This document shows positions 2,741-59,930 of a stretch of DNA of 64,000 nucleotides, piece by piece (the stretch's first letter is position 1; every line of letters starts with the position of its first letter). Position numbers and translations under genes: made by a program. Source of the stretch: Bryobacterales bacterium (lineage in GTDB: Bacteria; Acidobacteriota; Terriglobia; Bryobacterales; UBA6623); contig OZ250179.1 of NCBI GenBank assembly GCA_965238125.1, positions 5,237,271 through 5,301,270 of the forward strand. The letters are read 5' to 3'. The notes beneath the pieces are model-generated. The model saw only the letters and a program-made list of their open reading frames with translations. It searched no databases and was not told the origin of the DNA.

Positions 2741-3128
2741 GTTATCAACAGTAATCCCGCAGCGGTACAATGTCCCCATCTTGATCGGCCAAACTATCTC
2801 GCACTACAAGATCACCGAAAGGCTCGGTGAAAGGGCGGGGAGAGAGTTCTTCGTGTTGTGGGCAATGTGGATCAGAATCTTGTTCCGCTGCGACTGCTTG
2901 CTCGCGGGACGGGCTCTGAACCGGCCGGTCAATCGGAAGACACTCCAATCTCCCAAGGGATCGAAAAACTCGTTACGCGTTACGCCGAGATCGGAGATTT
3001 CAGCGGCGTCGTCTTGTGGCGCGGGGAGACAACGTGATGTTTGCCGGTGCTTTTGGGGAACCAAGTCGCGAGTCGGGCGCGCCGAACTCGATGGAAACGG
3101 CGTCGTAGAGTGCGAGGAGATTCGGGGC
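2741..3128 (+). repeat. Inverted-repeat copy A1: kinase 5' module (TACAAT, 9 nt, [20 protein letters not shown]) joined to the decayed 5' end of a beta-lactamase-family serine hydrolase
   Basis: Reverse complement matches 30488-30870 at roughly 85-90% by eye. TACAAT 2766-2771, TTG 2781. A downstream frame reads MWIRILFR... and IEKLVTRYAEIGDFSGVVLWRGETT.MFAGAFGEPSRE (serine hydrolase N-terminus), broken by frame changes. Confidence 0.75.
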
Positions 3129-3294
3129 GGCTACAACCTTGGCCTGCTGCAGTCGGTTCGGTTAGGAGAGTCCATCGACAGCGAAACCGTTACTGATCTC
3201 GATTGTGGTCCGTCGGGTACCAGGGTAAAATCAAGTGAGACGCGAAGGTCAATCGGACTTCGCCTGGGAGGCACACACGCCTAGAGAGATTGCC

Positions 3295-5874
3295 ATGAGG
3301 TTGCGAGTCCTCCGCGATCACTGCTATCTCGCCCTCGCTCTCCTTTTCGCTTTGGCACACACGGTGCCGGTTCACGCCGAGGAGGACTCTGTCCTTGCGG
3401 AGAAGGCTTGGCGGGTCCTCGAAAAGAATTGCCTAGTGTGTCATGGTGCTCAGGCTGAAAACACCACGGGACTGGACCTGCACAGCCGCGAAGCGATCCT
3501 GAAGGGCGGCAAGAGGGGGCCGGCCGCCGTCGCCGGCAAAGCGGACGAGAGTCACTTGATCAAGGCCGCCTCCCACGAAGACCTGCAGATGCCACCAGGA
3601 AGCAAGCAGCCACTTCCGGCCGAGGATTTGCAGGCACTGAAGGACTGGATCAACGCGGGACTGCCGGCGCTCGCCAGAGCGGACATCAAAACCGTGCAGG
3701 TCCACTGGGCTTTCCAGCCCGTAAAGAAGCTCGATCCACCCTCGTACCCCACCGGCTGGTCTTCAAACGAGATCGATCGCTTCATCCAGGCGAAGCTCGT
3801 AGAAAAAGGCATCGAGCCCGTGGGTGCCGCTGGCAGACGGGCGCTCATCCGGCGTGCCTACTTCGATCTGACCGGGCTGCCGCCCTCGCCTGAGGAGATC
3901 GCCGCCTTTGTCGCCGACGACTCACAGGACGCGTTTGCCACCATCGTCGACAAGCTGCTGGGCTCGCCACGATACGGCGAGCGCTGGGGCCGCCACTGGA
4001 TGGATGTGGTCCACTACTCAGACACCGCCGGCGACAACGCCGACTACCCGATCCCGGAAGTCTATCGATACCGAGACTACATCATTGGCTCATTCAACGC
4101 GGACAAGCCCTACGACGAGTTCGTTCGGGAGCAGTTGGCCGGGGACATTCTGGCCAAGCAGGGCCCCTCATCGAAGTGGGGAGAGCGGGTGGCCGCCACG
4201 GGCTTTCTAGCGCTGTTCCGGCGCTACGGGATCTCGCCGAAAGAGATGTGGTTTCTGACGATGGAGGACGCCATCGATACGGTCGGGCGCGCGTTGATGG
4301 GCTTGACGCTGCGTTGCGCCCGCTGCCATGACCACAAGTTCGACCCCACGACAACACAGGACTACTATGCGCTCTACGGGATCTTCGACAGTACCGAGTA
4401 CTCCTACACGGGCTCGGAGCGGCTTAGGGCCTTCAACCGCCGGAACTTCGTGCCGTTCGAGCCGCCGGAGGTGTCCGGCGCCAGGCTGGCCAACTACTAC
4501 AAAACCATCCTCGATATGAAGGAGGAGGCGGACCTCCTCAAGCAGCGGCTGGACGAAGGGGACAGGGAAGCCCTCGAACAAATCGCCAAGATTGATGCCA
4601 AGTTGGCGAGAGGAGAGCGGCTGGCCTTGCAGGCCGCAGCCGAGGGCTTGAAGGTTGAGAAGGGGCGTTCAGAGGAGATTGTGAAGCTTCTCGCCGAGCG
4701 CGAAGAAATCCTCAACGCGCGAAAGGACAAGGTCGCCTACGACCCCGTGGGCAGCAAGCAGGAAACGGCCGCGGAGCACATCGCCAGAATTGCCGAACTG
4801 CGAAAGCGAGCCAAAGCACTGCAACTTCGCGGGTATCCCGAGAGCCTTCCGATGGTTTATGGGGCCCGGGAAGGAAAGATAGTCAACACCCGCCTCCACA
4901 TTCAGGGAGATCCGTTCAATCAGGGAAAAGTCATCCCGCGCAACGTCCCGGCGTTCCTGACCGGGGGCAAAGGCATCGAGATTCCCGAAGACAGCAGCGG
5001 GCGGCTGGAGCTGGCGAAGTGGCTGACGAGTCCGGATCATCCGCTGACCGCGAGAGTGATGGTAAACCGGATCTGGCACTATCACTTCGGCAGAGGGATC
5101 GTCACGACACCCTCGAACTTCGGGCTGCGCGGGGAGCCGCCGACACACCCTGGGCTGCTGGACTGGCTGGCGAGCCGGTTCGTCGAGAACGGCTGGTCCG
5201 TCAAGGCCATGCACCGGCTGATCATGCTGTCGAACACCTATCAGATCTCGAGCGTTCCCAGCAGCGAGGGGGCCGCGAAAGATCCCAGCAATCGGTACTA
5301 CGGGCGTTTTGACCGGCGCCGCTTGGACGCTGAGCAGATTCGCGATTCGATGTTGTTGCTTGGGCGGAATCTGGACCTCGAAAGGCCAGGGGAGCACCCC
5401 TTCCCTCCGCTCGAGCAATGGGGCTATTCACAACACGTCCCATTCAAAGCGGTGTATGAGTCGAACCACCGCAGCGTCTATCTGATGCAACAGCGGCTGA
5501 TTAAGCATCCCTACTACGCCACTTTCGACGGACCGGACACGAACTCCTCGACAGGGAAACGGGGCGTCTCGACCGTCTCGTTGCAGGCGCTGTTCATGAT
5601 GAATAGCGACTTCGTCCACGAACAAGCGAAGGGGTTCGCGCGGCAGTTGGTCTCCACCGCGGCGGACCCGAAAAGCCGTGTTGAGTTGGCTCAGGAGATG
5701 GCCTGGGGGAGCAAGCCATCGAAGGAGGAAGCCGAGAAGGCGGTCGAGTATGTCCGGAGCGTCGAGGACGAGTCTCAAAGTGCGGGTTCGGTGCCGGCCG
5801 AAGCTGAGTTGGATGCTTGGTCGAGCTATGTCCGCGTATTGTTGACAGCCAATCGGTTTTTCTACATCGACTGA
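3295..5874 (+). CDS. PSCyt1 + DUF1549 + DUF1553 protein
   Basis: ORF 3235-5874; the likely start is ATG 3295 (MRLRVLRDHCYLALALLFALAHTVPVHA signal). EKNCLVCHG (CxxCH), FDLTGLPPSPEEIAAFV...SPRYGERWGRHWMDV (DUF1549), RCHDHKFDP and a DUF1553-like C-terminal region. Confidence 0.9.
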   Translation: MRLRVLRDHCYLALALLFALAHTVPVHAEEDSVLAEKAWRVLEKNCLVCHGAQAENTTGLDLHSREAILKGGKRGPAAVAGKADESHLIKAASHEDLQMPPGSKQPLPAEDLQALKDWINAGLPALARADIKTVQVHWAFQPVKKLDPPSYPTGWSSNEIDRFIQAKLVEKGIEPVGAAGRRALIRRAYFDLTGLPPSPEEIAAFVADDSQDAFATIVDKLLGSPRYGERWGRHWMDVVHYSDTAGDNADYPIPEVYRYRDYIIGSFNADKPYDEFVREQLAGDILAKQGPSSKWGERVAATGFLALFRRYGISPKEMWFLTMEDAIDTVGRALMGLTLRCARCHDHKFDPTTTQDYYALYGIFDSTEYSYTGSERLRAFNRRNFVPFEPPEVSGARLANYYKTILDMKEEADLLKQRLDEGDREALEQIAKIDAKLARGERLALQAAAEGLKVEKGRSEEIVKLLAEREEILNARKDKVAYDPVGSKQETAAEHIARIAELRKRAKALQLRGYPESLPMVYGAREGKIVNTRLHIQGDPFNQGKVIPRNVPAFLTGGKGIEIPEDSSGRLELAKWLTSPDHPLTARVMVNRIWHYHFGRGIVTTPSNFGLRGEPPTHPGLLDWLASRFVENGWSVKAMHRLIMLSNTYQISSVPSSEGAAKDPSNRYYGRFDRRRLDAEQIRDSMLLLGRNLDLERPGEHPFPPLEQWGYSQHVPFKAVYESNHRSVYLMQQRLIKHPYYATFDGPDTNSSTGKRGVSTVSLQALFMMNSDFVHEQAKGFARQLVSTAADPKSRVELAQEMAWGSKPSKEEAEKAVEYVRSVEDESQSAGSVPAEAELDAWSSYVRVLLTANRFFYID

Positions 5875-5888
5875 ACGGGGGCACGCAA

Positions 5889-7310
5889 ATGCAGGATTGC
5901 TGCGATCGGAGAACATTCCTGGGGCACTCGCTAAAAGCCCTCACCGCGGCCTACGGCCTGCGCCCGCTACTCTCGGTCGCCGCATCACTGAACGCTGGCG
6001 GCCCGTTGGCTCCAAAGCCTGGCCATCACCCGGCCAAGGCGAATCGGCTGCTTTGGATCCACTTGACCGGCGGGATGTCGCAGGTCGATACGTTCGATGC
6101 CAAGCCCAAGCTGCGCGAGATGCACGGACAAGAGATGGAGGTGCCGTCGTCCTATCCGCTCAGCAAGGAGATCGTGACCAGGCCGGCGCTGGGTTCGCCG
6201 TGGGAGTTCAAGCGTTGCGGCGAGTCGGGCTTGATGATCAGCGATCTGTTCCCGCTGTTCCGGGAACGCGCGGACGACCTGTGCGTGATTCGCACGATGC
6301 ACACGGACTTGGTCGAGCACTTCCAGGCGACGATGGCTATGAAGACGGGCTCGCCGACGCTGCCGCTGCCCAGCTTAGGGTCGTGGCTCAGCTACGGGCT
6401 GGGCACGGTGGATCAGAATCTGCCGCCCTACGTTGTATTGTGCGCGGTTCCGCCTTACGGGGGCTCGCAGGGGTGGGACAGCAGCTTCTTGCCGCCGTTC
6501 CACCAGGGTACGCGCATCACACCCGGGGACGATCCTGTGCCTCACCTCAAGCCTCAGTCACTGCCCGCGCGGGTAGCGGAGCTCGAAGCGCGGATGCTGC
6601 GCGATGTGAATCAGCTTCACGCCGACCTCCATCCCGAGGATTTGAATCTGCGGGCGCGGATGCGCAGCTTCGACACGGCACGGGGCATGATGCAGGTGGC
6701 GCCTGAGGTCTTCGACATCTCGCGCGAGGACCCCAAGATCCTCGACCTGTACGGGGCCGAGCCGGGCGATAGGAAGTCCCTCGGTTATCAGTGCCTGGTG
6801 GCGCGGCGGTTGCTGGAGAAAGGGGTGCGCGTGGTGGAGATCGTCGAAGACGGCGCGGACGGAAACAAGAACTGGGACGCCCACGTCAACCTCAAGGACC
6901 GCCACGAGACCAGCTCGCGCAAGGCGGACCAGGCCATGGCCGCCGCGTTGACCGACCTGAGACAGCGCGGGCTACTGACCGACACCCTTGTGGCAATCAC
7001 CTCGGAGTTCGGCCGTACCCCGTGGACCAATAGTGGAGGCGAGATCAACGAAGAGTCCGGCCGTCACCACTGGGGCCACGCGTTCACGTCGCTGCTGGCC
7101 GGCGGTGGCGTGAAGGGTGGCATGACCCACGGCGAGACGAACGAGTTTGGCTCGGAGATCGTTGAGAAAGGCGTCCACGTGCACGACTACCACGCCACCA
7201 TCCTGTACCTGATGGGGATCGACCACGAGCGTCTGACGTATCGATATGGTGGGAGGGACTTCCGGCTCACCGACGTGCATGGCAGAGTGCTACGGGACAT
7301 TCTGGCTTGA
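5889..7310 (+). CDS. DUF1501 domain protein
   Basis: ORF 5817-7310; the likely start is ATG 5889 (MQDCCDRRTFLGHSLKALTAA Tat-like), 15 nt after the upstream stop. HLTGGMSQVDTFDAKP and TSEFGRTP motifs. Forms an operon-like pair with 3295-5874. Confidence 0.9.
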   Translation: MQDCCDRRTFLGHSLKALTAAYGLRPLLSVAASLNAGGPLAPKPGHHPAKANRLLWIHLTGGMSQVDTFDAKPKLREMHGQEMEVPSSYPLSKEIVTRPALGSPWEFKRCGESGLMISDLFPLFRERADDLCVIRTMHTDLVEHFQATMAMKTGSPTLPLPSLGSWLSYGLGTVDQNLPPYVVLCAVPPYGGSQGWDSSFLPPFHQGTRITPGDDPVPHLKPQSLPARVAELEARMLRDVNQLHADLHPEDLNLRARMRSFDTARGMMQVAPEVFDISREDPKILDLYGAEPGDRKSLGYQCLVARRLLEKGVRVVEIVEDGADGNKNWDAHVNLKDRHETSSRKADQAMAAALTDLRQRGLLTDTLVAITSEFGRTPWTNSGGEINEESGRHHWGHAFTSLLAGGGVKGGMTHGETNEFGSEIVEKGVHVHDYHATILYLMGIDHERLTYRYGGRDFRLTDVHGRVLRDILA

Positions 7311-8374: not shown

Positions 8375-8406
8375 TCCCCGGCTCCCACCCGATGCGTACG
8401 CGGAGC

Positions 8407-8613
8407 CCCTACATCCGTGGCCGTAGAATAACTTTCGCGGCTCTTTGAGTTTTCCGGTTCAGGGCACCGCCGCAGGATTGCTGTTAATAACAATCGATGT
8501 CACAAACAGACAAATTTTTTCGTCCAGGACGCTGCGTCCGCTCGGTTTCCGGGTCCGTCAAGGGCGGTGAAGACGCTTATCTGCCGGATTGTTCATGCGA
8601 ACCGGATTTCGCG
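8407..8613 (-). repeat. Inverted-repeat copy B1 (junction-module spacer + TGTGACATCGATTGTTATTAA box + 3' extension)
   Basis: Reverse complement is near-identical over about 207 bp to 37715-37921. The box lies at 8484-8504. It sits directly downstream of kinase-TolB gene 1 and abuts the convergent ThuA stop. Confidence 0.85.
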
Positions 8614-8657
8614 ACAGTAATCCTCAGACGAGCGCTATCTAGTTCGTTTCGGGGGAC

Positions 8658-11410
8658 TTAGTCCTGCTCGCGGTCGCGGAATTCTTCGAACCAGTTCTGC
8701 ACCACGCGGATTGACGGGGTATCGCTTCCTCGCTCTCCGCTTCATCCACAAGCACGAAGCGGCCGTCGGCGGAGACGTCGTAGGACACTGGAACGAAGCC
8801 GCCCGGCGGAAAAAGGTGGGTATCTGAAAACAGGGGCGTGGCCGCGACCGGCGCGAAGGCCGGAGACGTCGTCACCTCAACGGCCATCAGCGTGTCCCCC
8901 TCGACGTAGAACAGCTCTTTGCCGTCGTGGCTCCAGCGCGGCTGACAGCCCCCGCTCGCCGAGACCTGCCACTGCCCATCGCCGGAGGGAAACGGCCGCA
9001 CGTAAACCTGATGCTTACCTGAGTTGTCCGAGCAGTAAGCGATAAAACGCCCGCCGGGCGAAAGACGCGGCGCTTGCTCGGCGAAGGGCGTTTCAAGGAA
9101 CGGCACGGATTCAAACTCGTCCTCGTCGTCTTTGCGCTTCAGATACCAAATGTCGGAACTGCTATCTGCTCCGACCGCGAGAACTGTTCCAGCCGTGGAG
9201 ACCGTGTAGACCAGGTAGTTCCCGTCGCGAGACCAGCCGTAGGCGACCTCATGCGCCTCGGTGGTGGCGACCAACACCCGCGCCTCGCCGGTACCGTTCG
9301 CCGCCCGGCGGAAGATGTCGAAGTTTCCCTCGCGTAGCGAGGAAAACGTGATCTCTCGCCCCGAAGACGACCATTGCGGCAAGACATCGAGCGCCGCATC
9401 AAAGGTCAACCGCCGCTTCATCGGCCGCTCGACCTCATGCACCCAGACGTCGAAGTTGCCGCTTTCCGTTGCCCCCACCGCCACGCGGCGGCCGTCGGGA
9501 GAGATCACCGGGAAGCCAATGTACCGCTACGGCTGTCCGATCTCGCCGAGCTTCTCTCCGTCCCGGCCGCGCCAAACCAGTTGTTGCAGCGTCCCGGCCC
9601 CCTCGAGGAAAACCAGCGTTCCGTCTTCCGAGACGCTGGGATGGATGGCGTCCTCGGCGATCGGGAACGCCTCACCGCTCGGCTGCAGAGTCTCCAGCGA
9701 GAACGGCAAGGCCCAAAGACTCCCCTGCAGGCTGCTTCTTATCTTCGTAAACACAAGGTGTCCACTCGGCGAATAGCCGGCCCACACGCCGTCTTGGGCC
9801 AACAGTTGCGACTCGCCGGTTTCGAGGTTCTTGAGGACGATGTCTGTAGCGAACCCCTCCCCGACACTCAAAACCAAGCTTCGAGCACGAGCCTGGAGCG
9901 GCAGGAACCGAGGTTGAAGATTGAGGTTCCCTTTCTCGGTCTCCTCCCGCTCGAACAGCAGCTTGGGCGGCCCTCCCCGAGCGGGGACTTCATGGATTCG
10001 CAGGTCTGAGGCGAAGGCGACTGTCTGCCCATCGGGACTCCACGAGCCGCCCTGATAGCTGCCGGGCAATTGACAGAGCGTGACCGGCAGTCCCCCATCG
10101 ATCGAGATCTTCTTGAGCTCATCCTGTACGACGAAGCCGAGAAACCGGCTGTCGGGCGACCAGAAAGGATCCCGGCTCACGCCTTCGGTCCCGGCCAGTC
10201 GGCGTGGTTCTTCGCGATCGATGTCCCGCACCCAGAGCGCCGGCTCGCCCGGCCCGGCCAAATAGGCGATGTGCCGGCCGTTGGGAGACACGGCTTCGTT
10301 TAGGCCGATTGTCATCAACAGGGCCTCGGGAGCAAAGGACCACTTACTGACCAGGAGCTCGGGCGACCGAGTTTGCCTGAGGAAGAGCGAGGCAAAGAGT
10401 GCGATCGCAAGGCAGGCCGCCACCGCCCAGGAGAGTCGTTCACGGGTTGCGGTGGGGGCGCCTTGCTGGGCCTTGGGGACGGTGGCGAGTTCGGCTACGT
10501 TTGGGCCTTGTTGCGCTGGGGCTGGTTGTGTTGGACCGGCAGGAGTGCCGGTCGCTACGGGAGCACCTGTGCGCAGGATCGTCGATTTACCCGACTTCAG
10601 CTTCTCGCTGAGCGTTTCCAAGTCCACAACCATGTCGGCAGTACTTTGGTAGCGCCTGTCGGCTTCCTTGGCGAGACACTTGTTCACCAAAAGTTCCAAC
10701 TCCATCGGGACGCCCGTCCGCAGCGCTGTCATCGGCTCCGGCTCTTCGTTGGTGATCGAATACATCACGGCTTTGTCGTAGTGGCCCTTGAACGGCCGCT
10801 GCCCGGTGACCATCTCGTAAATGACAACACCCAGTGACCAGACATCCGTACGGTGGTCCAGCTCCATCCCGTAGGTCTGCTCGGGGGACATGTAGGTAAC
10901 CGTGCCCATGGTCTCGTCCAAACGGGTGAGCTTCGAGCGGTCGGTTAGCAGCGCCAGCCCGAAGTCCATGATGGTGACGTGGCCGTCTTCGCCGATCATC
11001 AGGTTCGCAGGCTTGATATCCCGGTGCACAATCTTCTTGCCATGTGCGGCTTGTAGGCCCTTGGCCGTCTGGATGGCGATGTCGAGAGCGTCCTTCAGCT
11101 TCAGCGGCCCGGCCTCGATCTTCTTCTCCAGCGGCTCGCCTTCGAGGAAGGCCATGGCAATGTAGGTGCGGCCATTGGCCTCCGCGATTTCATGGACGGT
11201 GCAGACGTTAGGATGATTTAGGGCAGCGGCGGCCTTGGCCTCACGCTCGAATCGCTTGCGGATCTCGGTGTCCTCGACCAGATGCGCGGCGAGGAACTTG
11301 AGGGCAACGGGGCGATCCAGCGACGTGTCTTCGGCCTTGTAGACGACACCCATGCCGCCCCGGCCGAGTTCGGCGGTGACCTTGTAGTGAGAGATCGTTT
11401 GGCCGACCAT
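8658..11410 (-). pseudogene. Ser/Thr protein kinase + TM + TolB-like beta-propeller (paralog 1), disrupted
   Basis: [47 protein letters not shown], then repeated SPDG/WSPDG propeller blades. In-frame TAG at 9527-9529 (GEIGQP*RYIGFPVISPDG). A 1-nt frame change at G-run 8716-8719 removes the conserved tail [18 protein letters not shown]-stop, which is still readable ending at 8658. Confidence 0.85.
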
Positions 11411-11500
11411 GACAGCCCGATTTTACCGTGATTCAGATAACTGCTGATAACAATCGATGTCATGAACTATTACATTTTTCGTCCCCAGGTGCTTGAGACG
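11411..11500 (-). promoter_or_regulatory. Conserved kinase leader module (box + TAAAAT 9 nt before the ATG)
   Basis: TGATAACAATCGATGTCATG box at 11445-11464. TAAAAT (minus strand) at 11425-11420, with exactly 9 nt to ATG 11410 and no purine-rich SD. Homologous to 52187-52260 and 59525-59600. Confidence 0.5.
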
Positions 11501-11648
11501 GCTTGGGCTGCCGCCGGTCTGACCTCTTGTTGAGGGAACCCTCGCCGCCGATTGTTGAGTCGGAAATCATTTCTCGACAACGATCAACCGCGACACTCCG
11601 ACTCGAAAGATTCTAGCTTGGGCGGGCGGCATAGGAGGCTGCTTAGCT

Positions 11649-12741
11649 ATGAATCAACCGACTCATCGTCGTACTCGTCGCCGGAGGAAATCTCCCACCT
11701 TGCCCGAACTCGAACAGGCCAAGGCCGGCGTCCTCAACAGTCTCGGGTCTCTGCAGTCTCGCCGGTCCTACGGACGTGCGATCGAGGAGTTTATCGTCTG
11801 GTACTGTTCCGAGCCGCGACTGGCTCTCAACCGTGCCGTCGTGCTCCGCTTCCGCCTACGACTGGAAAGTCTGCGTCTGGCCGCTGCCACGATCAACGTT
11901 CGCATGGCCGCTGTTCGCCGTCTTGCTACCGAAGCCGCCGACAGCGGTTTGCTCAGCCCGGATCTCATCGCGGGTATTCGACGGGTTCGCGGCGTCAAAC
12001 AGTTGGGTCGCCGTATGGGCAACTGGCTCACTCCCGACGAGGGGCAGCGCCTGCTCAGTGCTGTCAGCGCCGATACTCTCCGCGGCAAGAGGGGACGCCG
12101 CTATGCTGGGGTTGCTGCTCGGCTGTGGATTACGACGCTCCGAGCTGGTCGAATTGGACGTGGATCAGATCCAACAGCGGGAGCAGCACTGGGTGATCCT
12201 TGACCTGATCGGCAAGGGAGGCCGCGTGCGTACGGTGCCCATGCCGGGTTGGGTCAAGGAGGCGATGGATGAGTGGATCTGTTCTGCGGAGATCACGGAA
12301 GGCCGGTTGTTCAGGGCGATCCGCAAGAACGGCGTGATGTGGGGACACGGGCTAACGCAGAACGTGGTCTGGTACGTAGTAAAGCAGTGTGCCCAGCGAG
12401 CGGGCATTCAGAAGCTTTCTCCCCATGACCTGAGGCGCACCTGCGCCAGGCTGTGTCATGAAGCGGGCGGAGAGTTGGAGCAGATCCAGTTTCTGCTCGG
12501 CCACGCCTCGGTGCTGACAACCGAACGTTACTTCGGCTGCAAACAACAACTGGGCCAGGCTGTGAATGACCGAATCCAGCTAACTGTTGTCCACACTCGT
12601 ATCACCGATCTGGCAGCAGACACGGACAGGATCAATCAACGATCACAAAACGAAGGCCGAGGGTCCGCCACAGAGGAACCGAAACCCAGGAACGGCGGCC
12701 TGGCAGTGAGTGCAGCACGGAGTCACCGTCCGGATTCGTAG
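11649..12741 (+). pseudogene. Tyrosine recombinase/integrase with a frameshift
   Basis: Two overlapping ORFs (11649-12203, 11776-12741). Joining them at G-run 12091-12094 gives ...TLRGKRDAAMLGLLLGCGLRRSEL...HDLRRTCARL...LLGHASVLTTERYF (R..HxxR..Y catalytic pattern). Confidence 0.8.
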
Positions 12742-14395: not shown

Positions 14396-14397
14396 TA

Positions 14398-49547: not shown

Positions 49548-52186
49548 TTAGCCCTGCTCGCGGCCGCGGAATTCTTCGTACCAATTCTGTACAACGCGGA
49601 TGAGAGGTGGAGGAGGTTTCACGAGCGTCTCCACCATCACAAACCGCTGCCCATCGGCGGATACCTCGTAGTGGTGCCCTCGACCAAGGGCCGCATCCCG
49701 GTCGTCAAAGAGCCGTCTCTCTGAGCCTCGCGAAAAGGTGGGCCTTGTCGTCACGGAAACCGCCACCAGCGTGTCGCCCTCCAGGTAGAACAGCTCCTCC
49801 CCACGCCAGCGCGGCTGCCGTCCGCCATTCGTCGAGACCTGCCGTTTGCCGCCACCCCGGGGAAACGGCTGGACATAGACCTCGTGTTGACCCGATTCAT
49901 CCGATTCGTAGGCCACGAATTTCCCGTCCGGCGAGAGTTCGGGAGCGAGGACATCGAATGGGCTGTCGAGAAACACCCTCTTCTCGTAACCGGCCGCACC
50001 TTCTCTTGGCTGCATGTACCAGATGTCCGGTTCTCCGTCGCCTACCACGTATTTCCCATCCGAACTCCAATCGGTCTCCCACTCGTTTATCGGCGTCGCC
50101 AGCAGTAGTTCCGCCTGTCCACTTCCGTCGGCTGCTCTGACGAATATGTCCATATTGCCGTTGCGGGAGGATGCGAACGTAATCTTGTCGCCCTTCGGCG
50201 TCCAACTCGGTTTAGTTATATCTGACGGGTCGAAACTTAGACGGGTCTTGAGTGGCCGGGCGACGTCATGGATCCAGATGTCCCAACTTTCGTTTTCCAA
50301 GGCCCTGACAACGACACGGCTGCCGTCCGGGGAGAGAACAGGCATCTGAATGTCCCGCTGTGGCCGGCCGATGACGTCAACCTTTTTACCACTCCTGTCG
50401 CGCCAAACCACCTGCTTCAGGCCGGTCCGCGCCTCCGTGCGGTAAAGCAGCGTGCCGTCGCCGGCAATGCTGGGATAGGAGGCATTCTCTTGGATAGGAA
50501 ACGGCTCGCCGTTCGTCGTCAAGGTCTCAACGGAAAAGGGCAAAGCCCAAAGCTCAGTAGCCCTCTGGTACACAATATGCCCGTCGGAGAATAGAAAGGC
50601 CGGTTTCCGAAGGCTATTACCTCTCGCTTGCCGCTCTCCAGGTTCTGCAGCACGAGGCGCTCTTCCTGTTGCTCGCTGATGACAAAGAGTAGGCTGCCGC
50701 TGCCGGCTTCCTGAGGCAAGAAATGGGGGCTCACAAATAATTGCCGCTGTTCTGACTCCTCCGGCTCGAACAAGAGCTTGGGCGTCCCTCCTTGGGAGGG
50801 TATTTGATACAACCTCTCCGGGGCGCCCCCGCTGAAGACGATCGTGTTGCCGTCCGGGCTCCAAGCACCACCCATAAAGCCCAACCCATCTTGACCGGGC
50901 AGTTCACACAAGATGGTGCCGGGACCACCTTGAACCGACACCTTCTTCAGCTCCCCCCCAGAACGGAAGGCAATGAAATTGCTGTCTGCGGACCAGAATG
51001 GGTATAAGTATTGTCCGGGCCCCCCAACTTGCCGCAGCTCGTCTCGACCAAGGTCTTGGACCCAGAGAGAACGCGGAGTGGTGATGCTGGAGAAGTATGC
51101 AATGCGCCGCCCGTCGGGAGAGATGACAGGATTCCGGAAGAGATCCTCAGGCGCGAAGGTGAATCTCCGCAGAGGCAACTCCGGCGTTGATTCGGGCGCT
51201 CGGAGCCACAATCCCAGACTGATTCCGACCGCCCCAACCAGAAACACCACTGCCGCCGAAACCGCTTTGGAACGTGCAGGCTTCCTCGTTGCTTCCTCGG
51301 CCGAGCGAAGGGCTCGCGGCGCCGCAACAACCAGGCGCTTTGGCGCCGCCGCTGTTTTGGCTTTCCCCGAAGCCAGCTTCTTGCCCAGGGAGCGCAGGTC
51401 AACCAGAATATCTTCGACATGTTGATAGCGGTCGGGTGCTTCCTTAGCCAAAGCCTTGCCAACGATGAACTCCAACTCCATCGGCAGGCCCGCCCGCAAG
51501 GCGGTGATGGGTTCCGGCTCTTCATTGCCGATCGCATACAACACAGCTTCTTGCCGCTCGCCGCCAAACGGCAAGCGACCCGTCACCATCTCGTAGATCA
51601 CCACTCCCAGCGACCAAACATCGGTGCGCCGATCGGTCGGTTGCCGCAGCGCTTGTTCCGGCGACATGTAGGCCGGCGTTCCCAGGATCGTCGCCGTCTT
51701 TGTGAGTCTCGATTGCTCAGCGAGTTGCGCGAGGCCGAAGTCCATGATCTTGACCTGGCCGTCCTCGGTCAGCATCAAGTTAGCCGGTTTGATATCGCGG
51801 TGAACAATGCCCTTTTGGTGAGCCGCCTTCAAACCCTCGGCCGTCTGGGTGGCGATGTCGATCGCCTCTTCGAGCTTGAGCGGACGGTCGCCGATCTTGT
51901 CCTTGAGGGTTCGGCCAGCAACAAAGGCCATGGCGAGGAACGTTTGCTCCTCGGCCTCGTCGATCTCGTAGACGGTGCAGATATTCGGGTGGTCGAGCGC
52001 AGCGGCGGCCCGAGCCTCGCGAAGGAAACGCTCGCTGGCCTCGGCGTCTTCCGTGACTTCAGACCGCAGGAATTTCAGGGCGACAGACCGTTGAAGTTTG
52101 GTGTCTTCGGCTTTGTAGACGACACCCATACCGCCCCGGCCGAGTTCGGAGAGGATCTTGTAGTGGGAGATCGTTTGGCCGACCAT
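49548..52186 (-). pseudogene. Ser/Thr protein kinase + TM + TolB-like beta-propeller (paralog 2) with a frameshift
   Basis: [43 protein letters not shown]. Two overlapping ORFs (50519-52186, 49548-50864) join as ...GNRPFYSPTG|HIVYQRATELWALPFS... near 50573-50584. Ends LIRVVQNWYEEFRGREQG-stop. Confidence 0.85.
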
Positions 52187-52400
52187 GACAGCCCGATTCT
52201 ACCGTGATACAGATACCTGGTGATAACAATCGATGTCACAAACAGAAGGATTATTTTCGCCCAAGACGCCGCCCGGCGACGGTTTGCGACTCCGGCACGA
52301 CGTTCCGCCACGCTCCAGCGTGCGAAAGCGAGTGCCATCCGGATTTCCCGACAGTGGTCCGTGCATCAGCGCTATGTACCGGGCACCGTTTTCACATCCT
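52187..52400 (-). promoter_or_regulatory. Conserved kinase leader/junction module
   Basis: TAGAAT (minus) 52201-52196 with 9 nt to ATG 52186. Box TGATAACAATCGATGTCACA at 52221-52240. Spacer block CCGGATTTCCCGACAG..CAGCGCTATGTAC at 52336-52378. Confidence 0.55.
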
Positions 52401-53330: not shown

Positions 53331-53539
53331 GGGTCCATTTGAGCCTTCGGGTCTAAGCGGTTGAATCCCGAGTTCGCGTTTGTACTGGTAGCGCATAGAG
53401 GCGTTGTGCGGCTGCCGTAAATTCTCAAGGATTGCGACAGACTGCCGCAATCTTACACGGGCATCGTACAGGAAATAAAGAACTTAGGGAAGAGTCGGCC
53501 GTGGAAGCGTCGCCATTAAGGGGGGAAGGCGACGGGGAT

Positions 53540-53660
53540 TGTTGTACGGAACCGGATATCCCAACACCTATATTCAAACGGGCTCTATCTAGTTCAGCCT
53601 TTGAGGCTTAGAGCCTTAGTCCTGCTCGCGGTCGCGGAACTCTTCGTACCACTTTCTGGA
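53540..53660 (-). repeat. Solo junction scrap: last ~14 codons of a kinase-TolB gene + spacer block
   Basis: The minus strand reads ...[13 protein letters not shown]-stop (53616-53618), followed by GGCTCTAAGCCTCAAAGGCTGAACTAGATAGAGCCC...GGGATATCCGGTTCC. Confidence 0.5.
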
Positions 53661-53765: not shown

Positions 53766-56070
53766 TCACTGTTCGAATAGCACCGGCAGATTCAACGGCG
53801 GATTCCGGCTGCCTTCGAAGTCGATCACCAGGGGCATGGTCGGCCCTGTTGTCACCAGGCTTTCCGGCAGTTGAATGTTGATCTGCGCGAGGCCCGCGAA
53901 GCGCGGCGTCAGGCCGGCGAACAAGACCTTCGCAGCCTCGCCGCCAACTGTGACCACGGGTGTCACCCGCGCCCGAGCGAGCGGCGAATCCGCTGTAGCC
54001 GCGCCCGTCGCGGGCGGATTGCTGACGCCGCCGATGCCGGTCACGAAGATGATGAGAACATCTCCCGGCTTGGCGGGATTAGCGGCGGTGATCAGCGCCT
54101 CGTCCGGGTGACGCTGGATGATCGGTTCGCCGCTGTTGGGGTTGATGAATACAGCCGGCGCGAACTCCGCCATCAGGACGGGCTCAATCGGGCTGTCTTC
54201 TCCATTACGCGTCACCACCACGTTGACTTGCCCGGGCGAGGTGACCTCGAAGGGAACCTGGAAGTTGATCTGTTTGGGCGAGACGAAGATCAGCGGCGCC
54301 TCCCAGCCGTCCAGGCGCACGCGAGCACCGCCCAACTCGAACGGTAGAGGCAGGTCTCCTCGGCCTTGAGCATATCGTCCGCCAGCTCGGCCCCGAAGAT
54401 GCTGCCGATCCCGCCAGGGGCGACAACCGCCTGGAATTGCGCCGCATCCACGATGCCAGCGGGCAAGATCGCCGGCGTTGTCGGGGGTTCCACGCCGCTG
54501 CCTTCCAAGGCGATCTCGACTCGCGGGCGGTTCGGATCATTCGACGAGATGATCAGCCGTCCGGTGAAATCGCCCAGCGACGGCGGGTCAAAAGCGATAG
54601 AGGGCGTAACCTGCTGCCCAGGGTTCAGCGTCAGTGCCTCCTGGCTGACGGGCGCCGGTGTCAGCGCCGCTACATCGGGGTCTTGGCGGAAGGCGTCGCC
54701 TTCGATAGTCAGTTCGACGCTCATCTCCACCTGGCTGCGGTTGATGATTTCAATCGGCAAGGCCACGGGTTCTCCAACCGGCGTGTCGCCGAAGTCCAGG
54801 GTTTCCGATTCCACGCCGACGAAGAGAATCGGCTGCTCCGGATCAAGTCCGGTGGCCTGCAGCATCACGTCCAGCGTCGGCTGGTCCGCGGCGTTCGAGG
54901 TCAGCGTCAGCGTTCCCGTTTCCTTCCCGGTCATGCCAGGGGTGAACTCAACGACAAAATCTCGCGACGTGCCGGCGCGCACCTGCATCGGCAGGTTCGA
55001 CAGCACCTGAAAGGCCGGGTTGTCTATGCCGGCGGAGTCGATCACCAGCGGACCCGTTCCGAGGCTCCTCACCTTGACGACGCCTTCGCTCAATTGCCCA
55101 ACGGGAGCGACGCCGAGGTCGGCCGGCGCGTCCACGGCAATGGCAGGCCTCTGAACGACGTTGAGCGGTCCGATCGTCTGTTCGGTCGTGTGGAAGCCGT
55201 CCGAGGCCTGCACCCGGAACAGCACGTTCTCGCCGCCTTCGATCAGAGCCGCGTTGAACGTCAAGGAGCTTCCCACGATATCGACGCCCAAGGGTAGCCA
55301 ACTTCCCCCGCCGTCGGGACTGTAGAGCGCGGCGAAAGTCAAAAGGTCGCCGTCCGCGTCGGAAGCTGTCCAAGCGATCGTGAGCGGCGTCGAAGCATCG
55401 AGGCTCGCGCCCGCGGTTGGCGAAGTGATCGCAAGCAACGGCGGGCTCGCGCTTGCGATGAGACTTGCTAACTCGTTGCTCCCTTGCATCAGGGCGATGA
55501 GGGTGCCGTCGGCGTGGTAAGGGAGAGCCGCTACGAAGGGCTGTTCGGAGCCGCCGCTGAAATCGGCGTCAAAGCAAGAGCGCTCGAGAACTCCGCCCCC
55601 GTTGCTCAGTTCGACGCAGCAATCTCCCGACTGTGGTCCGGGGGCAAGGAGCTTCGAGGCAGGGGCCCGATAGGCTGGATCGAGGCTCCCGCTCCCACCG
55701 CTGCGGACCGTTCCGCCGATGAGGAAAAACTCGCCGGGGTCGGCTTGCTGTTTTTCACGAAATGGCTGCCCGAGCGCCGCCGCCGAAAGCGGCGCGGCAA
55801 CAAACGGCCCGGTTAAAATTGTCTGAAAGAGGTTGATGTAGCTCGCGCCGGAAATCCAGCGATCGTCGCAAAACAGCTCCTTGACAACGAGTCCACCTTG
55901 GCTATCCAGGCCGAGTGCCGTGGGAAACTCGATACTACCCAAAGCCGGGCAAGGCCCGAGGACGTCTTCTGTCAGCACTTCGAATTCCCTAGCCAGCGCT
56001 ACAGCCAGTTCGATTTCCGCCTTCTCCCGCGGTCCCTCCGGCACGATAAAACTACCAAACACACTCTTGA
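53766..56070 (-). pseudogene. Large secreted protein, C-terminal part (choice-of-anchor-D/ASH-like Ig repeats + TIGR03437-type C-terminal domain), 3' of the IS1380 insertion
   Basis: ...LVIDSAGIDNPAFQVL...TLTLTSNAADQPTLDV..., ...IVDAAQFQAVVAPGGIGSIFGAELA... then (-1 shift near 54350-54360) ...LPLPFELGGARVRLDGWEAPLIFVSPKQINFQVP...AGLTPRFAGLAQINIQLP. The first 29 codons of track ORF 54290-56158 are IS sequence. Confidence 0.8.
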
Positions 56071-57737
56071 GCCAGGATTTCCATTTTGGCCCTGGCACGG
56101 TCACAGGATACACCCCCGCTGCGCCGAATACCACGTCTTTTCGCGCTGAACCCTGCACATCACCTCCGCCGGTAGGCGCCAGGGCTCGTCCGTCCGCTCA
56201 CAGACGTTGATTGAGCGGACTGAACGGCGCTCCGGCCGACACTGCTCCCTGCGAAACCTTTTTGGAGCCAAAAACTGTTGATCCTCGCCCGGGCAACGCT
56301 ACCCACCCGGCACAGGCAGCGCCCAGATCCTATGCAGCATGTCGCCGAACAGCCGCCGGTTCAGATGTCCTTCGGCCAACAGCAGCCAATAGTACCGCGC
56401 ATGCTTGACCAGCCTACCGCCCGTCTTCATCAGCCGCTGTTGCAAGCTCGTCAGCGACCAGCTCTTGATCCGTTGCGGCAGCCCGAGCCTCCGCCATAGG
56501 TTCCCCAGGTTATAGGCCAGCACGCTGAGTTGCAGTCGCACTTCGTTGGCCCGGAACCGATGGCATGACAGCCTTGTCCAATGCGTCGCTTGTTTGCCTT
56601 CCTTGATCCACTGCTCCGCCGTGCCGCGCTTGTTGTAGAACCGCACCAGCGAGCGGCTCGGCAAGGCCATGCTCGTGACGATGAAACCGACGCGAGGAAA
56701 CAACTCACCTTGGTGATGCTCGACCTTCGCAACAACCCGCCGGGACTTCGACCAACTCGCGGCCTGATACCGAAAGCTCCTGTAGCGCACCAGGGGCTTT
56801 GCGCTCGGCCTGCCCGGCGGACGAAACACGATATCTTCGATCTCCAGCTCCAGGCTCTTGTTGGCCGGGATGCGAATCACGTAGTCCACGCCGCGCTCCT
56901 CCAACGTCTCGTAAATATCCGGCTTGGTGAAGGCGGCATCGGCCCGGAACGTCACCTGTTTGCCCTCCGCCTGTTGGCGTTCGATTTCCGGCAGCAGCAG
57001 CTCGTCCCAGTCCTCGGCGCTGGACACGTTGCCCGGTCGCAACTTTGCCGCCAAGCAATCGCCGTGCTGGTTGAACAGCAACAGTGGGTGGTAGCAGACC
57101 GACTCGAAGTGGCCGTTGTAGGCGCTGCCTTCCTGCCGGCCGTGGACGGGGCTCTCGGTAGAGTCCATGTCCAGCACGACGCACGCGGAGTCATCACCGG
57201 CCTCGGCTTGCGCGATCAACTCGCGGTTCACCGCCATCAGCCCGATCAGATTCTCGTCGCCGGCGAGCATGGCGGTCTCGAAGCTCTGCAGCCGGGAGGT
57301 CAGCGCCGCGCCGCGATCCCAGTTCTTCTTCGAGCCAATCAGCCGAAAGGTTGGATCGGCGGAGACACGAACGGCGTCGTTGAGATCCTCGTAGCCCGCC
57401 AAGCGGGAGTAGACCGACTGTCGCAGCAGATCGACGAACGGGAACTTCTTGTTCGAGCCTTGCCGCGAATCCGTCAGATGCTCGTCTATCAGCTTGCCTA
57501 GTCCGAGTCGTTCGTCCAGTTCGCGAATGAGAATCAGCCCGCCATCCGAGGTGACTCGCGATCCTTGGAAATCGACCTTGAGAAATCCATTGAAGGTGAG
57601 CTGAAACGGTTTGTTTTCTTTTTCACCCATTGGGTGTTGATCTCCTCAGCGCCTTGAGTGCTTTCAAGCCCGCATAAATAAAGGCGTCCGAGTCCACCCG
57701 ATGGTTAGCAGAACCGAAACTAAAGTGGAAATCCGGG
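56071..57737 (-). mobile_element. IS1380-family insertion sequence, copy B (1667 bp)
   Basis: Same ends as copy A. 4-bp duplication TTGA at 56067-56070 and 57738-57741. Three amino-acid differences from the copy A transposase. Confidence 0.9.
56299..57630 (-). CDS. IS1380-family DDE transposase
   Basis: 443 aa, 440/443 identical to 32047-33378. Confidence 0.9.
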
Positions 57738-59524
57738 TTGAGAGGTCGTCTCAAAAGGATTTCCCGCGCAAGTTCTTCCTCGGTCGGATCCTCGATCGGG
57801 CCGGCCCACACAGCCACCATGTCCACGATGTCCCGCTGCACGAAGAGCACTGCTTTAAAGCCCTTGAGCACACCGGCTAGCGTGAAGCCACGGATTGGGT
57901 CGCCGAACAACCCCCCCGGCACCCCCAAGGGAATGTAAGCCACGCCCGAGGTCTCCGCCGCCGGAAACACTTTGCGCAGGAACCGGTCGGCACTGTGAAC
58001 ACCGTTGTCGCACCCATCAGGACAGGCTTCCAAGTATCCGATGGCAAGCGTCTCTCGCGGAAAAAACTCAAAACTTTCCGACTTCGTATTGTTGTCGGTG
58101 GAAGTCTCCTCGACGATCGGATCGCCGCTTCCGTCCAAGTTGACTGTCGCCGTCAAAAGCAAGTCTTCGACTTGTGTCCATTCCCTGGGAAGAATGAAGT
58201 TTCCCGAAACCTCGAGCGCCCTTCGAAAGCTCGACATTCTAGCGTCCGAGTTAAGTGTTACCCACGGGAACCGGGTGAACCCGCCGACAGGGTCCAGCAA
58301 GGGGCCATCCGGCCCCGCCCGGCCTCGCAGGTTGACCGGCACACTGGGACCGAAAGATACACCCTCCGGCAGATTCGCGACCTGGGGATACACTCGCACG
58401 ACAGTCCGCTTGTCGGTGACCATCGGGATCACGTTGTCGTCCGTCTGCACCGCCTGATTGATTTCGATATGGCGAACCGAGTAATCCACTCCCTCCGGCC
58501 CTTCGCCGATAGTCCACACCCCCAGGCCGACGGACTCGAGGGTGCGAAAAATTTCTTCCACGGGGTTATCAGGCGTCCAGCGCACGTAGATGTCATACGG
58601 CCCGAGGATGTTTCGTTCTTGGGCACGAGCTTCGTCGAAGAATGCGTCGATGCTAAATACCAGACGCTGCTCGTTGATGACCTCCAAACCGCACATGTTG
58701 AAAGTGTTGCTGAACGGCTGCTCCACGCAGGGAAAATCACCTCCTGGAAAGAAGTTGGCGGAACGGCGGAGGTCGATGTCGTTCGACCGCAAAAGATGTA
58801 CCGTAATTCCCTCTGCCTCATCGAATCGGGCGCCCGGAACGTTGACGAAGACCTTCTGACGCGTGTTCAGCGGCTGGTTCTTGATCGCGCCGAGGCTTAG
58901 TGGGGCAGGTTCCTCGACCTCATAGATCTGCACCAGTAATCGTGCGACCTCTGTTTCGGTTGGTACGCCGTCCTGGAACGTCCGCTCAATCGCGATTGCC
59001 GTGACCGCCAAGGCCGTGGGGATTTGCAACAAGCTCTGCTCTAATGTTTGCGGCTTGCCGGCACAGAACCCGCCGAACTCACAGCTCACCGCGGGGATGC
59101 TGAGCGGCAGCGAACTCGAGCCTACGTTGTTCTCGTCCCAGTTGAGAGCGCCATTTTCGGCCTTTGAGGTGAAACCGGGCGTCTCGCCCGACGTTGCGCT
59201 GGCAATGAAATCCGCCCCTTCGGATTCGACCAGCATTTTGACCCCGCCGAATTGAGGCGGATTGATCACACGCACCTGCACCTGGGCAAAAAACACGTCG
59301 CCTGGATAGAGAGTGCCGGTGTCGGGCAGGACGCTGATGAGTTCAAGCGATGTGCCCTGCGCCGCGGCGCTGAAGGCGGCCGCATGCATCAACAACGCAA
59401 GTGCAAGAGCCAGCCGGATGAGGCTCGGCGTTGAGGACGTGTCCTCAGCCTTGTAGACGACACCCATCCCGCCTTCGCCGAGCTTCTCGGTGATGCGGTA
59501 GTGGGAGATGGTTTGGCCGATCAT
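57738..59524 (-). pseudogene. Same large secreted protein, N-terminal part, carrying a grafted kinase N-terminus
   Basis: [29 protein letters not shown] (kinase module) followed directly by [28 protein letters not shown] (signal-peptide-like), then non-kinase extracellular sequence. The frame continues ...LLRRPL|KSVFGSFIVPEG... across the IS. Confidence 0.8.
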
Positions 59525-59733
59525 GCCGGTCCAATTCTACCTTGTTACAGATTGGTGTTGATAACAATCGATGTCACAAACAAACAGATTTTTTTCGTCC
59601 AGCGTGCGCCCTCGGCTTGGGTTGAGGGTCCACCGAGAGGCCGTGATACGTCTTGAGTCTCGGATTCGGAGTGCGAACCGGATTTCGCGACATCAATCCG
59701 CAAACAGGCGCTATGTAGTTCGTTTCGAGGGGG
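59525..59733 (-). promoter_or_regulatory. Conserved kinase leader/junction module (complete copy)
   Basis: TAGAAT (minus) 59539-59534 with 9 nt to ATG 59524. Box TGATAACAATCGATGTCACA at 59559-59578. Spacer block CCGGATTTCGCGACATCAATCCGCAAACAGGCGCTATGTAGTTCGTTTCG at 59668-59728. Confidence 0.55.
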
Positions 59734-59930
59734 TTAGTCCTGCTCGCGGTCGCGGAACTCTTCGTGCCAGTTTTGGACGATGCGGATAGTGGTTGGCGTC
59801 TCAAGGCAACGGGGCGGCGCAACACCGTGTCCTCGGCCTTGGAGACGACCCCCATACCGCCCTCGCCGAGCTTCTCGAGGATCTCGTAGTGGCCGATCGT
59901 CGTTCCGACCAAGATAGTGGAATTGTACCG
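59734..59930 (-). pseudogene. Mini kinase-TolB relic: start + 40 N-terminal codons joined to the last 19 codons
   Basis: TACAAT (minus) 59927-59922, 9 nt, TTG 59912, [37 protein letters not shown], junction near 59791-59800, then (other frame) [18 protein letters not shown]-stop (59734-59736). Confidence 0.7.

Follow-up and report, generated by a model that had tools for sequence, protein, structure and literature searches.

The short module that recurs across this 64,000-nucleotide stretch of a Bryobacterales genome (hereafter the window) probably represents the paired conserved flanks of one expanded family of membrane Ser/Thr kinase-TolB/PD40 genes, surviving as relics of birth and death whose promoters were sometimes captured. 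The source family belongs to Bryobacterales and other Acidobacteriota. The recurrence described in the sequence-only reading is real, as all 13 of its loci (11 main loci and two tail-only scraps) match. With the complete copy (59800->59430, minus strand) as query, blastn matched the 11 main loci and the scrap at 19.5 kb, and nhmmer profiles (TS and PLN) recovered the blastn loci and added the decayed scrap at 21.7 kb. The core of block P (GACATCGATTGTTATYA, a 17-mer searched with up to three mismatches) occurs six times in the window, against 0.08 occurrences expected from shuffles.

The same ordered blocks, T, S, P, L and N, had been said to recur; the blocks do, but the order T-S-P-L-N is complete only at 59800-59430, and the other loci carry T-S-P, P-L-N, T-S or N alone. 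Block S, taken earlier as a single unit, has two parts, a 5' half that follows the stop codon and a 3' half that is the upstream region of the next gene. This 3' half is a distal motif (TGTCG.GAAAT...ACAATC), a variant of which also lies upstream of solo copies of P. A Ser/Thr kinase-TolB (PD40) gene supplies block T and the first ~25 nt of S, as its 3' coding end and 3' flank. The distal motif, a spacer constant at 70-76 nt over 14 junctions, P and L together are the ~210-nt 5' regulatory region of the kinase gene. P consists of an A-tract, a partly palindromic core (CGATTGTTATC.ACAG.AATC) and a -35-like TCAACA; L is the -10 box TA[G/C/A]AAT, and N comprises the first ~30 kinase codons, glycine loop included. 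The loci below were placed by profile search and sequence reading, and prime marks (N', T') denote partial remnants of N or T.

2740-3128, plus strand: 3' part of P, L and N' (17 codons) with a ~290-nt scrap, the same as at 30.6 kb (PLN match 2740-2839); a PSCyt/DUF1549/DUF1553 gene (3235-5874) lies downstream
8404-8702, minus strand: T-S-spacer-P after kinase 1, L and N decayed (TS match 8702-8596); a convergent ThuA gene comes next
8658-11410, minus strand: kinase-TolB gene 1, disrupted by a TAG codon in frame at 9529-9527 and by a frameshift immediately ahead of T
11349-11585, minus strand: distal motif, spacer and P-L-N of kinase 1 (PLN match 11481-11349); a XerC/D-like recombinase gene (11776-12741) is divergent from it
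19520-19639, minus strand: T' scrap of ~40 C-terminal TolB codons (tblastn; nhmmer match 19561-19525)
21645-21734, minus strand: decayed T'-S scrap, stop codon lost (nhmmer)
30487-30899, minus strand: P-L-N' (17 codons) with the ~290-nt scrap (PLN match 30899-30774); a duplicate of 2740-3128, with a GDSL lipase gene (30440-29679) downstream
31811-31913, minus strand: P-L-N' (19 codons), ending ~45 nt upstream of the DoxX start (31764); an IS at 31940 cuts its left side
37626-37924, plus strand: T'-S-spacer-P, L and N decayed and the -10 lost (TS match 37626-37732); 37712-37924 is 98% identical to 8616-8404
49487-49592, minus strand: T-S of kinase 2; a tyrosine integrase gene (48170-49372) comes next, in convergent orientation
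49548-52186, minus strand: kinase-TolB gene 2 (Pkinase + PD40), with a frameshift near 50575 that splits it
52125-52379, minus strand: distal motif, spacer and P-L-N of kinase 2 (PLN match 52262-52125)
53549-53655, minus strand: T'-S scrap, ~110 nt past the stop codon of the cargo gene
53766-59436, minus strand: cargo gene, a secreted protein with Ig-like (Cep192_D4/ASH) domains; an IS at 56070-57737 interrupts it
59437-59600, minus strand: P-L-N', with -35 TCAACA, 16 nt, -10 TAGAAT, 9 nt and ATG at 59524 (profile match 59600-59463); the 29 kinase codons of N' are fused in frame to the cargo gene
59672-59798, minus strand: T' (last ~20 codons, stop codon 59736-59734) and S (TS profile positions 2-108 at 59778-59672)
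59799-59937, minus strand: L and N', with TACAAT, a TTG start at 59913 and 38 kinase codons (nhmmer PLN positions 52-138 at 59937-59851); N' is joined out of frame to T' at ~59799

The kinase-TolB bodies are indeed usually missing. In tblastn searches, bodies appear only at 11410-8658 and 52186-49548, both with Pkinase and PD40 (Pfam) and bounded by P-L-N (5') and T-S (3'), and the remaining loci keep only the first <=38 and the last ~<=52 kinase codons. Both surviving genes are disrupted, by frameshifts in each and by the in-frame stop in kinase 1. The noncoding blocks had been described as conserved about as well as the coding ends, which the alignments bear out: the flanks share 70-85% DNA identity (families D4, D6 and D7), whereas the two remaining bodies are ~50% identical as protein. 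At 59937-59799, where residues 1-38 of kinase 1 map to 59912-59799 (tblastn), the N-T fusion is the internal-deletion relic of a kinase gene. An eroded array of kinase-TolB paralogs is supported as the origin of the module by this relic, by two surviving genes with the same flanks, by the scrap at 53549-53655, which at the corresponding junction of a close relative (L042) has 83 nt less, and by intact tandem arrays in relatives. These arrays comprise four kinases in a row in L059 and two in L058, and their junctions contain L and a portion of P. None of the sampled junctions with intact kinases on both sides carries the full T-S-P-L-N, and L and N are lost in some copies.

The relic pattern extends to three Bryobacterales MAGs and an independent metagenome sample. 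In the window and the Bryobacterales loci, 15 P-L-N copies keep at most 38 kinase codons. In the independent sample, 29 of 44 copies keep at most 100 (19 with <=40 codons and 10 with 41-100), with a further six at 101-800 codons and nine at full length. Between tandem kinase genes, the module junction would form as the first gene's 3' flank abuts the 5' region of the second. Fast turnover of the family would delete bodies internally or replace them with other genes and trim the coding scraps further, and the short conserved flanks would outlast the bodies and stay recognisable. Some promoter/start relics would thereby come to lie directly before, or in frame with, unrelated genes and most likely drive them through promoter and start-codon capture; the order of events that placed cargo genes between N' and T' is one we infer. 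In Solibacter usitatus, Ser/Thr kinases form a large paralog family with <50% identity, and the genome is rich in mobile elements (PMC3174227). Birth-and-death families of this kind resemble the module in their large, diverged membership, their mobile-element-rich genome and their deletion-shortened remnants. The module differs from them in that its flanks are far better conserved than the bodies and its relics are biased to the first <=100 and last ~50 codons.

A different reading takes the distal motif-P-L-N' unit for a promoter cassette that is actively copied but non-autonomous. Its 5' terminus would be defined and its 3' end variable, and one-ended or copy-choice duplication would carry it to new intergenic sites and place genes there under kinase-family regulation; we regard this as possible, though well short of an even chance. 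At least eight solo copies have a sharp 5' edge with unrelated upstream flanks, and in the P2 subfamily (six copies, 84-97% identical) the 5' edge lies at -129 in all, with 3' ends from +34 to +195. Truncated copies outnumber intact kinases by ~3:1 and keep P more often (19/29 against 5/15 long copies in the metagenome sample). Additionally, the composite of P-L-N' and scrap is a ~390-nt duplication before two different genes, a 213-nt patch is 98% identical across two copies that have diverged elsewhere, and T'-S-spacer-P-L-N' is contiguous in 14 cases against one case of N'-T' fusion. Cargo genes often lie between N' and T'-S scraps, so plain erosion is not an easy explanation, and this placement, the sharp 5' edges, the excess of P and the P2 edges fit active copying better than passive decay. 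However, no terminal inverted repeats or target-site duplications are evident by eye where 14 full junctions are aligned, nearly every copy has a 3' end of its own, and no transposase is consistently linked to the module. The coding scraps show each copy to derive from a real kinase gene, and about half of the copies at MAG loci face a convergent gene or no gene. Fixed ends of the MITE type were likewise not found, as the outer ends are ragged (TS profile starts 2-62, PLN profile ends 39-138). In its fullest form, the distal motif-P-L-N' would be an enzyme-less, propagating 'mobile promoter' of Acidobacteria that seeds intergenic sites and recruits genes, some of them in frame and leaderless, to a kinase-TolB regulon, which we consider unlikely.

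The proposal of a hot spot for site-specific integration or recombination at the module, above all at S, with att-like repeats or integron-like cassette boundaries, did not hold up well and is in our judgement improbable. Several neighbourhoods invite it: T-S of kinase 2 has a P4-type integrase gene as its immediate neighbour, and the T'-S-int block occurs again in L001 at 90.6% identity; in the window, and also in L035, a XerC/D-like recombinase gene borders the module on its 5' side; a group II intron occupies the same position of S in two loci; and module parts flank cargo genes on both sides. However, neither T-S nor P-L-N lies near any of three genes homologous to the P4-type integrase (62-78% identity), and both integrases score far below the cut-off of 265 bits for the integron-integrase profile TIGR02249 (52 and 19 bits). 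The candidate att pair 49592-49487 / 21734-21645 has no identical core in common, the upstream neighbours of solo modules are ordinary metabolic genes, and the breakpoints of N' and T' vary widely. As a short repeat between unrelated genes and a possible source of promoters, the module does resemble integron cassette arrays and promoter-bearing intergenic repeats of the MITE type (Correia elements, for example). The module has no integron integrase, no conserved attC-type hairpin in its consensus fold, no terminal inverted repeats and no fixed ends. The noncoding module sequence is strongly conserved between species, which could also suggest a structured RNA (sRNA, riboswitch or 3'-UTR element). 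Such an RNA is extremely improbable here: Rfam gives no match at gathering score in the window, the consensus fold of 13 copies reaches -2.96 kcal/mol with essentially no covariation (a double change in only 1 of 11 predicted pairs) and no structure in S, and conservation peaks over the promoter hexamers and immediately 5' of them.

The promoter scan found TCAACA, 16 nt, TAGAAT (9/12 consensus matches) and 9 nt to the ATG, which lies within the ranges taken to mark a sigma-70, leaderless promoter (-35/-10 spacing of 16-18 nt and a -10 box ~7-12 nt before the start codon). The hexamer TA[ACG]AAT is kept in 29 of 39 copies. It is intact in 9 of the 10 copies that face a co-oriented gene (the tenth has AAGAAT) against 11 of 19 others, a difference with a one-sided P of ~0.009 or 0.085 by hand calculation, depending on how one degenerate copy is scored. 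A TANNNT box ~10 nt before the start codon is the published signature of leaderless genes, whose share in Acidobacteria has been estimated at ~13% of genes (PMC3160421). With its -10 box 9 nt before the start codon, the module would likewise yield an mRNA that is leaderless or nearly so. A sigma-70-like promoter is thus predicted in the module, and its activity, the leaderless start and the binding of a regulator at P are all putative. No description of a TCAACA/TAGAAT/9 nt/ATG promoter with a conserved upstream core was found in the literature searched.

The suggestion that downstream genes captured a portable promoter/start cassette is supported as a description of the outcome in several cases. 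In the window, the genes behind promoter/start scraps encode DoxX, a GDSL lipase, a PSCyt/DUF1553 protein, the Ig-like secreted protein and kinases. At the in-frame fusion at 59437, the Ig-like cargo gene is missing ~12 codons of its own start as well as its own upstream region, both of which are present in homologues; two of these, P0001 and P0002, begin with MLTWCRPFFAARPPSLIRPALALL... and lie at loci (L052 and L053) without the module. The P-L-N'-DoxX junction recurs in an unrelated context in another assembly (L051), as a 695-nt block with 97.6% identity. In other genomes, the module lies ahead of many unrelated genes, among them formamidase, HisK, ATP-grasp, DUF2071, DEAD helicase, Abhydrolase_3, RidA, astacin, BNR, MBL and AMP-binding genes. 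Neither an orientation bias nor an excess of in-frame fusions marks capture as the rule: about two-thirds of neighbours are co-oriented in the metagenome sample and about half at the MAG loci, and about a quarter of fusions are in frame. By our estimate, these proportions are close to the expectation without selection, and selection for capture is not demonstrated. Most copies have no kinase and now stand before unrelated genes, to which some are fused, and this is probably a case of natural promoter reuse.

Promoter capture and gene fusion by deletion have reportedly arisen in long-term experimental lines of Pseudomonas fluorescens and E. coli. In the laboratory cases, as in the module, a rearrangement sets an existing promoter, sometimes with first codons, against the start of another gene. 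The laboratory cases are single events, whereas the module comprises dozens of natural events from one donor promoter family. Cases of recruited promoters from P. putida, L. lactis and E. coli are cited by the authors who described putative mobile promoters, or PMPs (Matus-Garcia, Nijveen & van Passel 2012, PMC3488235; PMC3575422). PMPs are families of highly similar upstream sequences before non-homologous genes. The earlier remark that no described element has this architecture was too strong, as PMPs cover the general phenomenon, although not the form with coding-end scraps (PMC3488235). PMPs occur within and between genomes and have been proposed to rewire transcription, with recombination-mediated duplication as one route of spread (PMC3488235). 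They are defined by at least 50 nt of upstream sequence with at least 80% identity before at least two genes of one genome (PMC3488235). The genes downstream of the module are non-homologous, as in PMPs, and some pairs of copies pass the identity threshold while others fall below it (176 nt at 85% in D4, 45-nt copies at 69-91% in D7, and blastn matches of 99-165 nt at 72-79%). Unlike PMPs, the module carries a start codon with 4-100 kinase codons and often the kinase 3' end, traces to one paralog family, and in several copies forms in-frame protein fusions. The PMP pipeline took hits between coding regions as homology and dropped clusters on that basis (PMC3488235), a step that may have removed N'-bearing copies.

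If the relic promoters are active, they would be among the largest cases of natural reuse of promoters and start codons from a single donor family, in a soil phylum, Acidobacteria, that is abundant yet poorly studied. The genes behind modules would form a set possibly co-regulated with the kinase-TolB sensors, and the module may serve as a marker for rapid birth and death of kinases. For annotation, many short Acidobacteria open reading frames with a kinase-type N-terminus, and many N-terminal extensions on unrelated Acidobacteria proteins, are likely relics or fusions and not kinases. The module also offers a candidate promoter/operator for Acidobacteria, with -35 TCAACA, -10 TAGAAT, 9 nt and ATG below a conserved upstream core, and a 25-mer across L and the start codon occurs exactly in 69 metagenome stretches.

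The recurrence of the module in the window (G+C ~60%) held up. A blastn search with the sole complete copy (59800->59430, minus strand) recovered all 11 main loci and the scrap at 19.5 kb, and profile searches added a match at the decayed scrap at 21.7 kb. The P core occurs six times against 0.08 expected by chance. The sequence-only reading had described five ordered blocks, of which T is the 3' coding end of a kinase-TolB gene, L the -10 box to the start codon and N the first ~30 codons; all five stand together at only one locus, and the rest carry T-S-P, P-L-N, T-S or N alone. It had also held that the gene bodies are mostly missing, and tblastn of the window indeed finds no kinase/TolB body besides two Ser/Thr-kinase + PD40 (TolB-like) genes assigned by Pfam:

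11410-8658, minus strand: kinase 1, with an in-frame TAG at 9527-9529 (GQP*RYIGF) and a frameshift at ~8720, in a CCCC run just before T
52186-49548, minus strand: kinase 2, with a frameshift at ~50575

The frameshifts may be long-read sequencing or assembly errors instead of real lesions. Both genes have P-L-N at the 5' end and T-S at the 3' end, and their bodies are ~50% identical as protein while their flanks are 70–85% identical as DNA.

The module divides into two gene flanks: the S-to-P distance is constant at 70–76 nt across 14 aligned junctions from the window and its relatives, and a variant of the S 3' half (TGTCG.GAAAT...ACAATC) precedes solo P copies by the same distance. T and the S 5' half are thus the 3' flank of one gene, and the S 3' half, spacer, P and L the ~210-nt 5' region of the next. 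A consensus scan predicts a promoter with -35 TCAACA, a 16-nt spacer and -10 TAGAAT, the ATG lying 9 nt beyond. Leaderless genes, an estimated ~13% of Acidobacteria genes, have as their published signature a TANNNT box ~10 nt ahead of the start codon (PMC3160421). The P core (consensus CGATTGTTATC.ACAG.AATC) has moderate dyad symmetry (5.4–5.5 of 10 positions versus ~2.5 by chance), and a dimeric-regulator site there is a guess. A CRP/FNR-like or sigma-54-like site was rejected since its half-site, TCGAT, is unconserved in copies not used for locus selection. Neither Rfam nor tRNA searches of the window gave a match, and a consensus fold of 13 junctions gave no conserved structure; with no Rfam match and no covariation, a structured RNA was discarded.

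Truncated copies front unrelated genes. In the ORF from 59524, 29 kinase codons lead, without a change of frame, into a signal peptide followed by a large Ig-like secreted protein (cargo gene 53766-59436, minus strand). Two cargo homologues, P0001 and P0002, each begin with a start of their own, MLTWCRPFFAARPPSLIRPALALL..., the module is absent from L052 and L053, the loci that encode them, and window homology to these loci begins 37 nt inside the coding sequence; P-L-N' (primes denote shortened coding scraps) therefore took the place of the cargo gene's original promoter and its first ~12 codons. On the 3' side of the cargo gene, a close relative (locus L042) also has T'-S with a scrap 83 nt shorter, which is direct evidence that scraps are trimmed by deletion. 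From 31884, 19 kinase codons end ~45 nt before the start of a DoxX gene, and the 695-nt P-L-N'-DoxX block recurs at 97.6% identity in a second assembly with otherwise unrelated flanks. The copies from 2786 and 30830 share 17 kinase codons and a common ~290-nt scrap, and are followed by a PSCyt/DUF1553 gene and a GDSL lipase gene, respectively; the scrap (2.8 and 30.6 kb) had by eye resembled a serine hydrolase gene start, a reading dropped as it has no Pfam match. The copy from 59913 is an internal-deletion relic, running from 38 N codons straight into the final 20 T codons with a shift of reading frame. As a separate observation, a 107-nt patch (53427-53533) directly after the 53.5-kb T'-S is 95% identical to positions 7627-7733 of L051, a contig otherwise unrelated.

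Copies of the module extend well beyond this genome. The 18 loci retrieved by a P-core search come from three Bryobacterales MAG species and, together with the window, give 39 P-L-N copies and 22 T-S copies. Few of these P-L-N copies are followed by a long kinase gene, 15 keep at most 38 kinase codons, and the genes behind MAG modules encode formamidase, histidine kinase, ATP-grasp, DUF2071 and DEAD helicase proteins, among others, in a recurrent order of P-L-N', one to four unrelated genes and T'-S. In JGI metagenome contigs, an independent sample, the TAGAAT type of the L/start 25-mer matched 69 stretches, and a metagenome scan with the TACAAT-type L variant had no match. After removal of redundancy, 44 copies had 1.2 kb or more of sequence on their downstream side.

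Kinase codons kept in the 44 non-redundant metagenome copies
40 or fewer: 19 copies
41-100: 10 copies
101-800: 6 copies
more than 800, full length: 9 copies

Downstream of the truncated metagenome copies lie Abhydrolase_3, RidA, astacin and AMP-binding genes, in-frame fusions occur with ATP-grasp, BNR and MBL proteins, and intact tandem kinase arrays of up to four genes exist. The MAG and metagenome copies together with the intact arrays indicate that the phenomenon is general and that the module derives from the kinase family. Assembly chimeras were rejected because the junctions recur in independent assemblies and a repeat common to kinases could not splice the start of one onto an unrelated gene. 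In five marine/sediment metagenome loci (L072, L082, L068, L061 and L101), the sequence upstream of -129 relative to L is likewise of recurrent types (...TTAAAYRCAATTTGTYCAGACTCAC or ...CAACGACTYCCRCCCMGC), of which some contain a ATTGCATTAAATGCAAT palindrome, and the intergenic regions of such copies resemble a patchwork of several repeat modules.

Clustering groups copies across species, so there is no homogenisation within genomes. Gene conversion may nonetheless occur occasionally, because 213 nt (S 3' half, spacer, P and decayed L/N) are 98% identical between 8404-8616 and 37712-37924, inverted and 29 kb apart, in copies whose adjoining T/S 5' parts are only ~60–80% identical; the tract looks like a recent conversion.

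The best-supported explanation is birth and death of a paralog family combined with promoter capture, which joins two of the three options of the sequence-only reading, an eroded kinase array and a captured promoter cassette. A large kinase paralog family would undergo birth and death, its conserved regulatory flanks would persist after the bodies were lost, and neighbouring genes would capture some of the relic promoters. A large paralog family of this birth-death type has been described for the Ser/Thr kinases of Solibacter usitatus (PMC3174227). The evidence for selection on promoter capture is only suggestive: the -10 box is intact in 9/10 copies with a co-oriented gene in front of them (AAGAAT in the tenth) versus 11/19 others, with a hand-calculated one-sided P of ~0.009 or 0.085 depending on how the AAGAAT copy is scored, and by our own estimate neighbour-orientation and in-frame ratios are near the no-selection expectation. 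Passive decay poorly explains that the T'-S-spacer-P-L-N' junction remains in one piece and replacement affects the gene body, that unrelated flanks give way abruptly to the module at its 5' edge, that P is kept in 19/29 truncated metagenome copies versus 5/15 intact genes, and that six near-identical copies share one 5' edge with differing 3' ends and flanks. These features would suit a promoter unit that is actively copied as a cassette, which we consider improbable though worth weighing. A MITE was rejected, as the ends are ragged and inspection of aligned junctions revealed no terminal repeats or target duplications; nor was the sharp 5' edge accepted as the mark of a mobile-element insertion, as upstream neighbours are mostly ordinary genes.

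The third option, a recombination or integration hot spot, drew on the following neighbours of the module:

48170-49372, plus strand: P4-type tyrosine integrase gene (Arm-binding and catalytic domains), its end ~115 nt away from the kinase 2 T-S
5715-6719 of L001, a locus in another MAG, minus strand: T'-S-integrase block, 90.6% identical
11776-12741, plus strand, and 5425-6522 of L035, a locus from another genome, minus strand: XerC/D-like recombinase genes, divergent from the module 5' edge
6063-~7945 of locus L015, minus strand: group II intron with an RVT_1 ORF (Rfam RF02005, 174 bits)
6516 to beyond 8000 of locus L039, minus strand: group II intron with an RVT_1 ORF

The sequence between the XerC/D-like gene and the module is shared in the two genomes, and the window copy of the gene may be truncated at its N terminus. 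The two introns are in different module copies but occupy one and the same S position, antisense, between GGATWRNTG and T[CT]G, so S copies may be repeated homing sites for a group II intron. An attachment-site reading was nevertheless dropped because three more distant homologues of the P4-type integrase elsewhere have neither a module nor a tRNA gene nearby. Both integrases are generic XerC/D-like enzymes, not of integron type, which removes an integron, and upstream neighbours of solo modules are mostly ordinary genes; the hot-spot option was rejected.

The closest described concept to this pattern of paralog birth and death with promoter capture is the putative mobile promoter (PMC3488235). 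The module differs in carrying the start codon and first codons of an identifiable donor gene, in often being accompanied by the 3' end of that gene, in yielding in-frame fusions and in having a traceable origin in one paralog family across Acidobacteria. The phenomenon is real, general and useful, with a predicted promoter.

Mobile DNA is abundant in the window. A 1668-nt IS (DDE_Tnp_1_4 transposase) is present at 31940-33607 and 56070-57737 in 100% identical, inverted copies; the P block at 31913 is cut on its left by one copy, the Ig-like cargo gene is split by the other, and recombination between them could invert the intervening 22 kb. An IS630-like element (HTH + DDE_3, two ORFs) has four full or partial copies (13296-14400, 28600-29700, 26761-27331 and, inverted, 20542-21400). 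Further copies lie in L042 (2832-3931 and 7501-8000), and because the window copies of the element are 99.5% identical to those of Bryobacterales MAG CBDDCY, this MAG is a close relative of the source genome. Mutator-family, rve and UPF0236 transposases, two tyrosine recombinases and one serine recombinase are also encoded. PSCyt/DUF1549/DUF1553 + DUF1501 gene pairs, typical of Planctomycetes and Acidobacteria, are repeated at 730-2232, 3235-7310 and 38859-42647, one of them behind a module scrap. A 43-nt direct repeat occurs twice (38302-38401; 95% identical, 57 nt start to start) inside the minus-strand ORF 38298-38750.
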